Below are positions 7,889-8,848 of a DNA stretch of 64,000 nucleotides, in pieces. Position numbers and translations under genes: made by a program. This DNA comes from Escherichia coli (GTDB lineage: Bacteria; Pseudomonadota; Gammaproteobacteria; Enterobacterales; Enterobacteriaceae). The first letter of the stretch is position 1. Each line of letters starts with the position of its first letter. The notes under the pieces are model-generated. The model made no database searches. It was not told where the DNA came from and was given only the letters and a program-made list of their open reading frames with translations. The stretch is from the NCBI RefSeq assembly GCF_044324785.1, contig NZ_CP172127.1. The stretch is one strand, 5' to 3'.

Positions 7889-8848
7889 TTAATTTACCAT
7901 CAGTCTTAGAGCCAGTTCGTCCGGATAGGGATCGAAGTAATTCTGTGTAAGCAAGTAGTCATTAGGATACTCACCCAGATAATGCTTCAGCAGAGTCAAC
8001 GGCGCAAGAAGAGGTAATGTGCCAGAACGATAGTTAAGTATAACCTCGCTCAACTCTTTACGCTGGCGTGTACTTAAGTAGTTACTAAAATACCCCTGTA
8101 TATGCATCAGCACATTCGTGTGATTTTTACGTGATGCAGGTTTTCTGAGAATCGCCATCAGCTTATCACGATACACCTCAAAGTATGATTCAAGGTCCGC
8201 CCACTCGTGTATTGCAGCCACAAATGGTCCCATATCTTTATAGCCTGCCTGACTATGCGCCAACAACTGAAGCTTATAACGACTATGAAAAGCTAATAAC
8301 TCTCTTCTTGATAATTTCTCCTTGTAAAGGTGATTGAGCTCATGCAAAGCAAAAACTCTTTCAACAAAATTCTCACGAAGCACTGGATCATGTAATCGCC
8401 CATCCTCTTCAACCGGTAGCCAGGAAAACTTTTCCATCAAAGTGCTCGTAAATAGTCCCACTCCATCTTTACGACCTCGATTACCATTTTCATCATAGAC
8501 ACGCACGCGCTCCATGCCACAGCTGGGAGATTTAGCACAAACCACAAACCCCGATACATCCTTTAATTTGTCCATATAAGAACGACTAAACTCTGTCATT
8601 CTCTCTGTCACATCCTCATTCTGGTCGTGGCTGAAACACATCCGTATATTTCCTTGCGTCGAGCGCACAAGACGTAGAGCAGGACGCGGAACTGGCAGCC
8701 CTATAGCCATTTCCGGACATACTGGTCTGAATGTTACCCATTCCACTAATTTGTCCATTAAAAAGTCAGCTCTTTTGTGACCACCATCAAAACGAACAGC
8801 AGAACCGGCCAAACAACCGCTGATTCCAATCACAGGTTTTTTTATCAT
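7889..8848 (-). CDS. DUF523/DUF1722 fusion protein (TudS thiouracil-desulfidase-like Fe-S domain plus YbgA-like domain)
   Basis: 319 aa; N-terminus GISGCLAGSAVRFDGGHK with further Cys (CPE, SPSCG) typical of DUF523; C-terminal half YbgA-like; assignment from remembered domain architecture. Confidence 0.5.
   Translation of the reverse strand: MIKKPVIGISGCLAGSAVRFDGGHKRADFLMDKLVEWVTFRPVCPEMAIGLPVPRPALRLVRSTQGNIRMCFSHDQNEDVTERMTEFSRSYMDKLKDVSGFVVCAKSPSCGMERVRVYDENGNRGRKDGVGLFTSTLMEKFSWLPVEEDGRLHDPVLRENFVERVFALHELNHLYKEKLSRRELLAFHSRYKLQLLAHSQAGYKDMGPFVAAIHEWADLESYFEVYRDKLMAILRKPASRKNHTNVLMHIQGYFSNYLSTRQRKELSEVILNYRSGTLPLLAPLTLLKHYLGEYPNDYLLTQNYFDPYPDELALRLMVN

Follow-up and report, generated by a model that had tools for sequence, protein, structure and literature searches.

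The window, a stretch of 64,000 nucleotides from Escherichia coli, contains a lambdoid prophage of the DLP12 type that is integrated at argU, with the tRNA-Arg(UCU)/argU gene at 25507-25583, the integrase gene at 24328-25491 and the terminase and portal genes farther left. On the minus strand the order of elements is Q, a promoter-like site and a terminator, a blc-like gene on the opposite strand, rudS, a frameshifted AraC-like gene, a second terminator and the lysis genes S-R-Rz. The gene under study, rudS (7889-8848, minus strand), is an uninterrupted ORF of 319 aa with an ATG start in the ORF list; with Q on one side and the lysis genes on the other, all encoded on one strand, its position agrees with the initial annotation, which had placed it on the late strand of a prophage.

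The late antiterminator gene Q (9721-10098, minus strand) is of the QuuD type, and its product matches PHROG 79 ('anti-termination protein Q-like', E 1.3e-51) and is 88% identical to QuuD of K-12. It is followed by a leader (9599-9720, minus strand) with promoter-like elements and a hairpin. At 9622->9599 this leader also has a strong intrinsic terminator, with a 9-bp stem, 5 GC pairs and a T-run in the terminator scan. The leader has a fold of -34.6 kcal/mol (z = -4.9) and recurs in phages 1H12 and IdasGreatGrand; DLP12 of K-12 has part of it, including the conserved sequence 'ATATAACAG'. It contains several weak -10/-35 candidates, the post-Q promoter candidate is a weak match to the consensus, and neither pR' nor qut could be assigned with confidence from the sequence. 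Given that the leader occupies the position of pR'/tR' in lambdoid phages, we take it as the presumptive pR'/tR'.

The blc-like gene (9041-9565, plus strand) encodes an outer-membrane lipocalin lipoprotein (NCBIfam NF007786 Blc, 316 bits versus a cut-off of 267) and is antisense to the late transcript, which would cross 525 nt of this antisense DNA before rudS. The divergent intergenic region between blc and rudS (8849-9040) is a candidate site for a promoter of the cassette's own; its 192 bp are conserved, with 97% mean column identity when the window is aligned with phages 1H12 and IdasGreatGrand, and the sigma-70-like match in it is weak (9017->8990, minus strand, 9/12). On the other side of rudS, the gene for an AraC-family regulator (6808-7537, minus strand) is a pseudogene in the window: aligned with alleles in which the 243-aa frame is intact (strain N-01, phages 1H12 and IdasGreatGrand), it has lost one nucleotide from a T-run near 7421/7422 and another from a T-run near 7158/7159. 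The HTH of its product matches AraC models of the HilD/GadX type. In the annotation of the identical strain PM22 this gene is labelled 'frameshifted'. An intrinsic terminator just upstream of the holin gene (6725-6746, minus strand; terminator scan), which is invariant in 4/4 aligned cassettes, closes the cargo cassette. The lysis cassette (5449-6619, minus strand) consists of the ORFs S (6404-6619), R (5907-6404), Rz (5449-5910) and Rz1 (5508-5690), and S, R and Rz are annotated as essD, rrrD and rzpD in near-identical genomes.

The GC content is 43.5% in rudS, 44.2% in blc and 31.5% in the AraC-like gene versus 48-49% in Q and the lysis genes. The entire arrangement from Q through terminator, blc, rudS, AraC-like gene and terminator to S is kept in the free phages 1H12 and IdasGreatGrand. 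By its slot past Q and a terminator and before the holin gene, its deviant base composition and its own terminator, the cassette resembles the cargo ('moron') genes of lambdoid phages such as stx in Stx phages and nmpC in DLP12, from which it differs in that the cargo is a putative tRNA-modification eraser, neither a toxin nor a porin. A search of the whole window against Rfam gave no match in the cassette, and the only repeats within the cassette were short and of the kind expected by chance, with no palindrome resembling an operator.

Domains and catalytic residues of the rudS product

The rudS product combines a catalytic TudS/DUF523 domain with a tRNA-binding DUF1722 domain. As predicted in the initial annotation, both Pfam profiles match, and far beyond chance: PF04463 (2-thiour_desulf, i.e. 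DUF523) spans residues 7-149 (E 1.6e-39) and PF08349 (DUF1722) spans residues 192-309 (E 2.2e-40, model positions 1-117 of 117). PHROG 3275 matches the product over its full length. In NCBIfam, which holds no RudS model, the sole match is the YbgA model NF007549, which covers residues 160-315 only and at 190.8 bits falls below the curated cut-off of 237, ruling out a YbgA equivalog. YbgA of E. coli is a stand-alone DUF1722 protein, the gene of which adjoins the photolyase gene phr; it is homologous to the C-terminal half of the rudS product and differs from it in having no desulfidase domain. Because YbgA is a partial match of this kind, the RefSeq name 'YbgA family protein' undersells rudS.

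A sequence search of the PDB gave a single match, which is weak, N-terminal and to TudS (E 2e-4), and the domain was therefore confirmed by a fold search. In the AF2 model (pLDDT 86), the N-terminal domain matches TudS structures 6Z92, 6Z93 and 6Z96 only (target TM 0.74, probability 1.00), and for the DUF1722 half no solved structure matched. The window protein shares with TudS its N-terminal fold, the cluster site with three Cys and the catalytic motifs that contain Glu and Ser. Unlike TudS, which is a single domain of ~150-166 aa with free thiouracils and s4UMP as substrates, the window protein has DUF1722 in addition, which places it among the fusions that act on tRNA; with two domains and 319 aa it is not a stand-alone TudS.

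The motifs G8-I-S-G-C12-L-A-G15, C44-P-E46 and S107-P-S109-C110-G111 are present exactly as the initial annotation had quoted them. Across 22 aligned homologs, one of which is the tested RudS_TT from Thermus, the three proposed Fe-S cysteines Cys12, Cys44 and Cys110 are invariant, as are Glu46, Arg55, Ser107 and Ser109. Glu51, Ser111, Ser113 and Arg60 are essential in RudS_KT (PMC11417400), and their counterparts, mapped onto the RudS_KT numbering solely by offset from the cysteines, are Glu46 of C-P-E, Ser107 and Ser109 of S-x-S-C, and Arg55. In its sequence, the product has the RudS family features, i.e. a TudS/DUF523 domain with fused DUF1722, the three cysteines and the catalytic Glu/Ser/Ser/Arg.

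TudS-DUF1722 fusions constitute the RudS family of tRNA 4-thiouridine (s4U) desulfidases (Jamontas et al., NAR 2024, PMC11417400). RudS_vir of Escherichia phage 1H12 (H3V29_gp66) was cloned and expressed in E. coli and lowered tRNA s4U; among six orthologs including RudS_vir the decrease in E. coli was 4.7- to 26-fold, and stand-alone TudS and YbgA left tRNA s4U unaffected (PMC11417400). RudS did not change tRNA 2-thiocytidine, and 2-thiouridine was undetectable (PMC11417400). Cys12/44/110 are listed for RudS_vir in Table 1 of the same paper, which gives this numbering also for RudS_ST (PMC11417400). The window product is 99.7% identical to the homolog of phage IdasGreatGrand and 93.4% identical to RudS_vir (gp66, YP_009909557), with which it shares the length of 319 aa, the two-domain architecture and the cysteine numbering and from which it differs by 21 conservative substitutions, none of them at catalytic positions. 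The cassettes are also alike in that Q, blc on the opposite strand, rudS, the AraC-like gene and the holin gene are present in phage 1H12, the difference being the frameshifted AraC-like neighbor in the window. By analogy with these enzymes, the ORF at 7889-8848 is a phage-borne RudS, which is predicted to remove the sulfur of s4U in tRNA, and the guess in the initial annotation that s4U in tRNA might be the substrate agrees with what is published for the family. The identity and biochemistry of the product are already known, and its proper annotation is RudS (tRNA 4-thiouridine desulfidase) rather than 'YbgA family protein', 'hypothetical protein' or, as PHROG 3275 is labelled, 'unknown function'.

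Distribution of rudS in prophages, chromosomes and plasmids

We found rudS in 1135 of 5426 complete E. coli genomes (~21%) and in 12 deposited coliphage genomes, and the cassette persists in degraded prophages too. The view of the initial annotation that such a gene is unusual on the late strand of a phage was, given these numbers, an overstatement. E. coli is described as lacking RudS (PMC11417400); the prophage-borne gene in about one fifth of the complete genomes contradicts this.

RudS occurs in three diverged prophage groups. In the Providencia/Morganella-type group, in which RudS is 57-59% identical to that of the window, the order is Q, terminator, RudS, endolysin and Rz, and blc and the AraC-like gene are absent. 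In the third group, RudS is adjacent to dinI, within an early region of the nin-like kind and outside the late operon. Relatives with 70-74% identity are found on plasmids of Klebsiella and E. coli. These plasmids have no late operon.

Chromosomal relatives of RudS are found in light-stress contexts, i.e. together with photolyase and sigmaE-ChrR, carotenoid genes or a MerR-family regulator. The enterobacterial chromosomal and plasmid clusters include Salmonella ORF319/STM1389, lipocalin-MerR-uraH-RudS in Enterobacter and CFA-synthase...DUF3833-RudS in Citrobacter/Klebsiella; their orthologs are 70-77% identical to the phage protein and a lipocalin neighbor is common, the phage blc being 79% identical to the chromosomal lipocalin beside MerR-uraH-RudS in Enterobacter cloacae. 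The phage cassette differs from these clusters in that it has neither the MerR-family regulator nor uraH, has gained an AraC-like gene of high AT content and lies within a late region that is probably Q-dependent. The absence of MerR together with the location in the late region suggests that light-responsive control seems to have been exchanged for phage control. When the cassette was compared with the Enterobacter cluster by blastn, the two coding regions aligned and none of the intergenic DNA did.

Expression of rudS and its possible benefit to the phage

The position of rudS past Q and a terminator, before the holin gene and on the matching strand is that of lambdoid late cargo, and comparative synteny strengthens the reading that it is under late control. 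Of the initial annotation's claim of late control, the prophage location on the late strand was confirmed, here between Q and the lysis genes, and Q-dependent late expression itself is a reasonable inference from this position. The conserved 192-bp divergent region leaves room for expression from a separate promoter in the lysogen. Phage context, regulation and benefit to the phage were outside the analysis in PMC11417400, and literature searches on the protein accessions and on RudS in combination with prophages led only to the 2024 RudS paper and to reviews that cite it, with no data on expression or phage phenotype.

Combining gene order, family membership and distribution, we consider it probable that RudS is a tRNA s4U eraser carried as late cargo of a lambdoid prophage, with Q-dependent expression and a benefit to the phage as presumed elements of this explanation. 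In this model, (i) RNA polymerase modified by Q would start at the post-Q promoter and read past the terminator, through antisense blc and rudS into the lysis and structural genes, and expression from the cassette's own promoter could also occur in the lysogen; (ii) RudS would act as a [4Fe-4S]-dependent desulfidase that converts s4U8 of host tRNA to uridine, with Cys12, Cys44 and Cys110 as ligands of three of the cluster irons, the fourth iron, which is free, accepting the thiocarbonyl sulfur, Glu46, Ser107/Ser109 and Arg55 carrying out the hydrolytic exchange and DUF1722 docking the tRNA, at the anticodon arm according to the published model; and (iii) erasure of s4U would deprive the cell of its near-UV sensor, such that sunlight or UVA would cause no s4U8-C13 cross-link, stalled aminoacylation or ppGpp growth-delay response and translation would be kept going in the lysogen or when UV induces the prophage. 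Overexpression of RudS_KT shortened the UVA growth delay of E. coli from ~105 to ~60 min, a benefit seen for an overexpressed Pseudomonas enzyme and not for a phage.

Several observations count against this explanation. The post-Q promoter candidate fits the consensus weakly, and a late transcript would have to pass the 525 nt antisense to blc before it reaches rudS. The third prophage group has RudS in the early region by dinI. A further point is that the apparent tRNA activity of RudS_vir was below that of the other orthologs despite good protein levels, and that its lag on free 4-thiouracil was the shortest of the RudS set in a uracil auxotroph (PMC11417400).

Three points go beyond published work: (i) the prevalence of prophage RudS in E. 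coli, (ii) a phage copy placed behind the antiterminator Q, without the MerR-type regulator that accompanies its chromosomal relatives, and (iii) the recurrence of the Q-RudS layout in an unrelated phage group. Together, they lead to the hypothesis that induction is accompanied by phage-driven erasure of a host tRNA modification, a role that to our knowledge has not been shown for any temperate phage. More tentatively, RudS may be a recurrent accessory gene of lambdoid phages of E. coli, Citrobacter/Salmonella type and Providencia/Morganella type, located behind Q in two of these three groups and stripping s4U in the lytic phase. If so, phages would disable the checkpoint from UVA to ppGpp growth delay or some s4U-dependent step of tRNA surveillance or defence, and viral reprogramming of the host tRNA epitranscriptome would be tied to UV-triggered induction. 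Prophage rudS could also account for differences between strains in tRNA s4U content and near-UV growth delay.

Alternatively, rudS may together with blc serve lysogenic conversion: the promoter of rudS itself would drive most of its expression while the prophage rests, and lower s4U in the tRNA of the lysogen would give the host tolerance to sunlight and UVA, with late read-through as incidental; to this we attach appreciable, if less than even, weight. It overlaps with the late-cargo explanation, and the two are mutually compatible. The moron features of the cassette (base composition unlike its neighbors, own terminator, regulator gene), the high conservation of the blc-rudS divergent region, the plasmid-borne relatives and the retention of the cassette in a fifth of E. 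coli genomes, degraded prophages included, are consistent with lysogenic conversion. However, a good sigma-70 match upstream of rudS is absent, the cassette is missing the MerR-type regulator of the chromosomal cluster, and the order Q-RudS-lysis is found again in an unrelated phage group that has neither blc nor the AraC-like gene.

TudS-like salvage or detoxification of free thiouracil, thiouridine or s4UMP instead of action on tRNA is very unlikely. Homology of the catalytic domain to TudS and the short lag of RudS_vir on 4-thiouracil point in this direction; yet RudS_vir supported growth on 4-thiouracil only after a lag, none of the RudS variants supported growth on 2-thiouracil or gave TudS-like rescue, and it was RudS_vir and not stand-alone TudS that lowered tRNA s4U (PMC11417400), in line with tRNA targeting being conferred by the DUF1722 fusion.

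The slot between Q and S is a known dumping ground, occupied in DLP12 of K-12 by nmpC with IS5. With the adjoining AraC-like gene decaying in the window and only a 147-nt rudS remnant left in BL21, rudS might be a functionally neutral passenger hitch-hiking in this variable slot. We consider this very unlikely given that the ORF is intact in 1063 genomes, that RudS recurs in the three diverged prophage groups and that dN/dS between the window and phage 1H12 alleles is 0.10 at a dS of 0.30, which argues that rudS is under purifying selection in phages.

Finally, anti-defence genes are in general frequent among phage late and early cargo, but counter-defence against a tRNA-targeting defence nuclease or, as the initial annotation had proposed, against Dnd/Ssp phosphorothioation of DNA is very unlikely: in PADLOC, a library of defence rather than anti-defence proteins, the rudS, blc-like and AraC-like products had no match, the substrate of the tested orthologs is tRNA s4U (PMC11417400), and the Dnd/Ssp role is rejected since the family desulfidates the pyrimidine C=S thiocarbonyl, at C4 of uridine, and not a P-S bond, and since its chromosomal contexts are light-stress operons and not defence islands.

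The RudS protein of the prophage

The ORF at 7889-8848 (-), rudS, is intact from its ATG start and encodes 319 residues. The motifs picked out in the initial annotation (GISGC12LAG, C44PE46 and S107PS109C110G) are all found in it, and the reading of its domains as DUF523 and DUF1722 was right: Pfam PF04463 (2-thiouracil desulfurase, formerly DUF523) matches residues 7-149 (E 1.6e-39) and PF08349 (DUF1722) matches residues 192-309 at full model length (E 2.2e-40). TudS-DUF1722 fusions have been defined as RudS, tRNA 4-thiouridine (s4U) desulfidases (Jamontas et al., NAR 2024, PMC11417400), and Table 1 of that study includes a viral member, RudS_vir, whose Cys12, Cys44 and Cys110 are conserved and which corresponds to gp66 (H3V29_gp66) of Escherichia phage 1H12 (NC_049947). 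By tblastn against deposited phages, the window protein aligns with gp66 along its full length of 319 residues at 93.4% identity; the same value is found for ten sibling 'Lambda_ev' phages, and phage IdasGreatGrand reaches 99.7%. The finding at this ORF is real, but the RudS family and this phage ortholog were already characterised in 2024, and our contribution is the genomic context. New here are the frequency of rudS among E. coli genomes, the probable descent of the cassette from a lipocalin-MerR-uraH-RudS cluster, the recurrence of Q-proximal placement in a second phage lineage and the decay of the AraC-like neighbour.

In alignments that took in RudS_vir and Thermus RudS_TT (from plasmid pTT27), two orthologs tested by experiment, the Fe-S cysteines C12, C44 and C110 are invariant; the invariant residues also include R19, P45, E46, R55, S107, P108 and S109, together with a set of DUF1722 residues. 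Placed by their offset relative to the cysteines, they map to essential residues of the Pseudomonas ortholog RudS_KT, in which mutations at Glu51, Arg60, Ser111, Ser113 and Cys17/49/114 abolish activity (PMC11417400). The 21 differences from gp66 in pairwise alignment are conservative, and none falls at the cysteines, Glu46, Arg55 or Ser107/109. An AlphaFold2 model (mean pLDDT 86, pTM 0.86) matches, in a fold search of the PDB, only the TudS crystal structures 6Z92/93/96/6ZW9 (probability 1.00, target TM 0.68-0.74); the match is limited to the N-terminal half, and the same search returned no solved structure resembling the DUF1722 half.

Database names capture this protein in part. NCBIfam holds no RudS-specific model, and the RefSeq label 'YbgA family protein' is a partial description because the YbgA equivalog covers only residues 160-315 at 190.8 bits, below its 237-bit cut-off. 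PHROG 3275 spans the full length and is labelled 'unknown function'.

Cassette layout, distribution and probable derivation

The left 25.5 kb of the window is a lambdoid prophage integrated at the tRNA-Arg(UCU) gene argU (25507-25583), with its integrase at 24328-25491. In other E. coli, the annotation of near-identical prophages lists intD, emrE, ybcK/L/M, ybcN, ninE, ybcO, rusA, ylcG and Q, and also essD, rrrD, rzpD, iss/bor, nohD, terminase and portal genes. Compared with the cryptic K-12 prophage DLP12 (L014), the window prophage (1-25600) is a far more complete relative at the same argU site: it carries intD, emrE, ybcK/L/M, ybcN, rusA, a QuuD-type Q, essD, rrrD and rzpD, and in addition O/P replication genes, an immunity region, bet/exo/gam, terminase and portal. 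The slot between Q and the holin gene S holds nmpC::IS5 in DLP12 and the blc/rudS/AraC cassette in the window.

Downstream of Q (9721-10098 (-), 88% identical to QuuD) lies a leader (9599-9720 (-)) that combines weak matches to promoter elements with a strong intrinsic terminator (9622->9599 (-)). A blc-like lipocalin gene (9041-9565; NCBIfam Blc, 316 bits) follows on the strand opposite to Q and rudS, then a 192-bp intergenic region (8849-9040), rudS, an AT-rich spacer of about 350 bp, an AraC-family gene (6808-7537 (-)), a second intrinsic terminator (6746->6725 (-)) and the holin gene (6404-6619 (-)). 1H12 and IdasGreatGrand, both free phages, keep the entire cassette with its two terminators. 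Two 1-nt deletions in T-runs, near 7421/7422 and near 7158/7159, make the window copy of the AraC-like gene a pseudogene; the identical strain PM22 has this gene annotated as 'frameshifted', and strain N-01 and both phages keep an intact version of 243 aa. The GC content of the AraC-like gene is 31.5% vs 43.5% for rudS, and it seems to be of different origin.

Q, rudS and the lysis genes all point the same way, with rudS in the middle, and the promoter-like region and terminator upstream of rudS occupy the position where lambdoid phages carry pR' and tR'. From this architecture, we suggest that rudS may be transcribed with the late genes, in line with the late control proposed in the initial annotation. 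An IMG/VR scan, with neighbours mapped by local tblastn, gave 59 RudS-encoding viral loci in three groups. Group 1 (E. coli; 93-100% identity to the window protein) has the blc/rudS/AraC cassette behind Q. Group 2 (L049-L054, e.g. L051 3377-5423; 73% identity) comprises six loci in lambdoid prophages of Citrobacter/Salmonella type that place RudS within the early nin-like region, flanked by a Ren-like gene and dinI and ahead of both rusA and Q; this insertion point, directly upstream of the dinI homolog, differs from the Q-S slot of the window cassette. In group 3 (L056-L073, e.g. L057 3356-4948 and L065 2805-4951; 57-59% identity), found in Providencia/Morganella-type prophages with lysis genes resembling those of Providencia/Morganella phages, the order is Q of either of two types, one or two terminators, RudS as the first ORF, holin, endolysin and Rz, and the mapped loci have no blc/lipocalin and no AraC-like gene. 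Placement behind Q, as in groups 1 and 3, is therefore recurrent but, given group 2, not universal.

Outside phages, the nearest relatives (70-77% identity) are encoded on the chromosomes of Citrobacter, Serratia, Enterobacter, Klebsiella, Pectobacterium and others. Many plasmids, conjugative or large, from Klebsiella, E. coli, Salmonella and Enterobacter also carry orthologs of 70-74% identity (319 plasmid records; example loci L006 3021-5960, L007 4453-5960 and L010 3021-5960). An E. coli IncY plasmid and the chromosome of Enterobacter cloacae share the order lipocalin (opposite strand), MerR/MlrA-like regulator, transthyretin-like uraH, RudS, and on the plasmid the full cluster has IS26 on its flanks; RudS thus moves along several routes within Enterobacteriaceae. 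The lipocalin of the Enterobacter cluster and the phage blc are 79% identical, and only the two coding regions align between cassette and cluster DNA. The phage cassette looks like the cluster minus its regulator and uraH. Elsewhere, RudS is the last gene of a cluster with CFA synthase, DUF1365, DUF2878 and DUF3833 in Citrobacter and on Klebsiella plasmids, lies between sigmaE-ChrR and photolyase in Pseudoalteromonas, and adjoins carotenoid genes in Thermus. These contexts agree with the published association of RudS with light stress (PMC11417400).

Of 5426 complete E. coli genomes, 991 carry the 3.1-kb cassette at >=80% coverage; rudS taken by itself is found in 1135 (1063 at >=80% coverage), almost always on the chromosome. 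BL21, the expression host of the RudS study, retains only a 147-nt remnant of the rudS 3' end (NZ_CP053601.1 1558651-1558797, annotated '2-thiouracil desulfurase family protein') and K-12 has no rudS, which probably explains the published statement that E. coli lacks RudS (PMC11417400).

Proposed role and alternatives

The window protein would act as published for TudS and RudS: three cysteines hold a [4Fe-4S] cluster whose unique iron binds the substrate sulfur, Glu and Ser provide acid-base catalysis, and DUF1722 binds the tRNA anticodon arm (PMC11417400). When expressed in E. coli, each of six RudS orthologs, among them RudS_vir, reduced tRNA s4U, by 4.7- to 26-fold, with the activity of RudS_vir apparently lower than expected from its protein level (PMC11417400). 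s4U8 is the near-UV chromophore whose cross-link to C13 leads to poor aminoacylation, a ppGpp burst and growth delay, and when RudS_KT was overexpressed in E. coli the UVA growth delay fell from about 105 min to about 60 min (PMC11417400). As physiological logic, we infer that a temperate phage induced by UV damage could gain if translation were kept running and ppGpp held low. Transcription from lambda pR and lambda replication are reportedly inhibited by ppGpp. Weak hints of the same UV/DNA-damage theme come from the presence of dinI beside RudS in group 2 and from the replacement of a MerR-type regulator by phage control.

A purely lysogenic-conversion role is plausible and compatible with late expression: given the strong conservation of the blc-rudS intergenic region and the existence of relatives on plasmids, rudS may be expressed in the lysogen from a promoter of its own. 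Salvage of free thiouracils in the manner of TudS is unlikely in view of the tRNA s4U data; RudS_vir had the shortest lag on 4-thiouracil and gave no growth on 2-thiouracil, and TudS-like behaviour on free thiouracils was seen for no RudS protein (PMC11417400). That rudS is a neutral passenger is contradicted by its recurrence across phage groups and by a dN/dS of 0.10 (at dS 0.30) between the window and 1H12 alleles; selection thus maintains the gene within phages. Action against Dnd/Ssp-type systems, as initially proposed, finds no support: the chemistry differs, and every non-phage RudS context is a light-stress or metabolic operon, not a defence island.

Other features of the window

The prophage carries a second cargo gene for lysogenic conversion immediately beyond Rz: a Bor/Iss-type lipoprotein gene (5124-5417 (+)), encoded on the opposite strand and labelled iss ('increased serum survival') in near-identical genomes. 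Between the cI-like repressor and kil/gam, 19536-20255 (+) holds two small ORFs with unassigned functions (87 aa, phrog_4231; 147 aa, phrog_3556, which has a coiled coil as well as a TM segment at its C-terminus). Otherwise ~98%-identical prophages carry DUF3800, DGQHR-domain or Ser/Thr-kinase genes there, and the slot looks like a variable one for exclusion or defence cargo at the rexAB position. In the host part of the window, the sRNA STnc480 (46984-47050 (-), 87 bits) and the antisense RNA AgrB (60072-60159 (-), 57.5 bits) were found at the Rfam gathering threshold.
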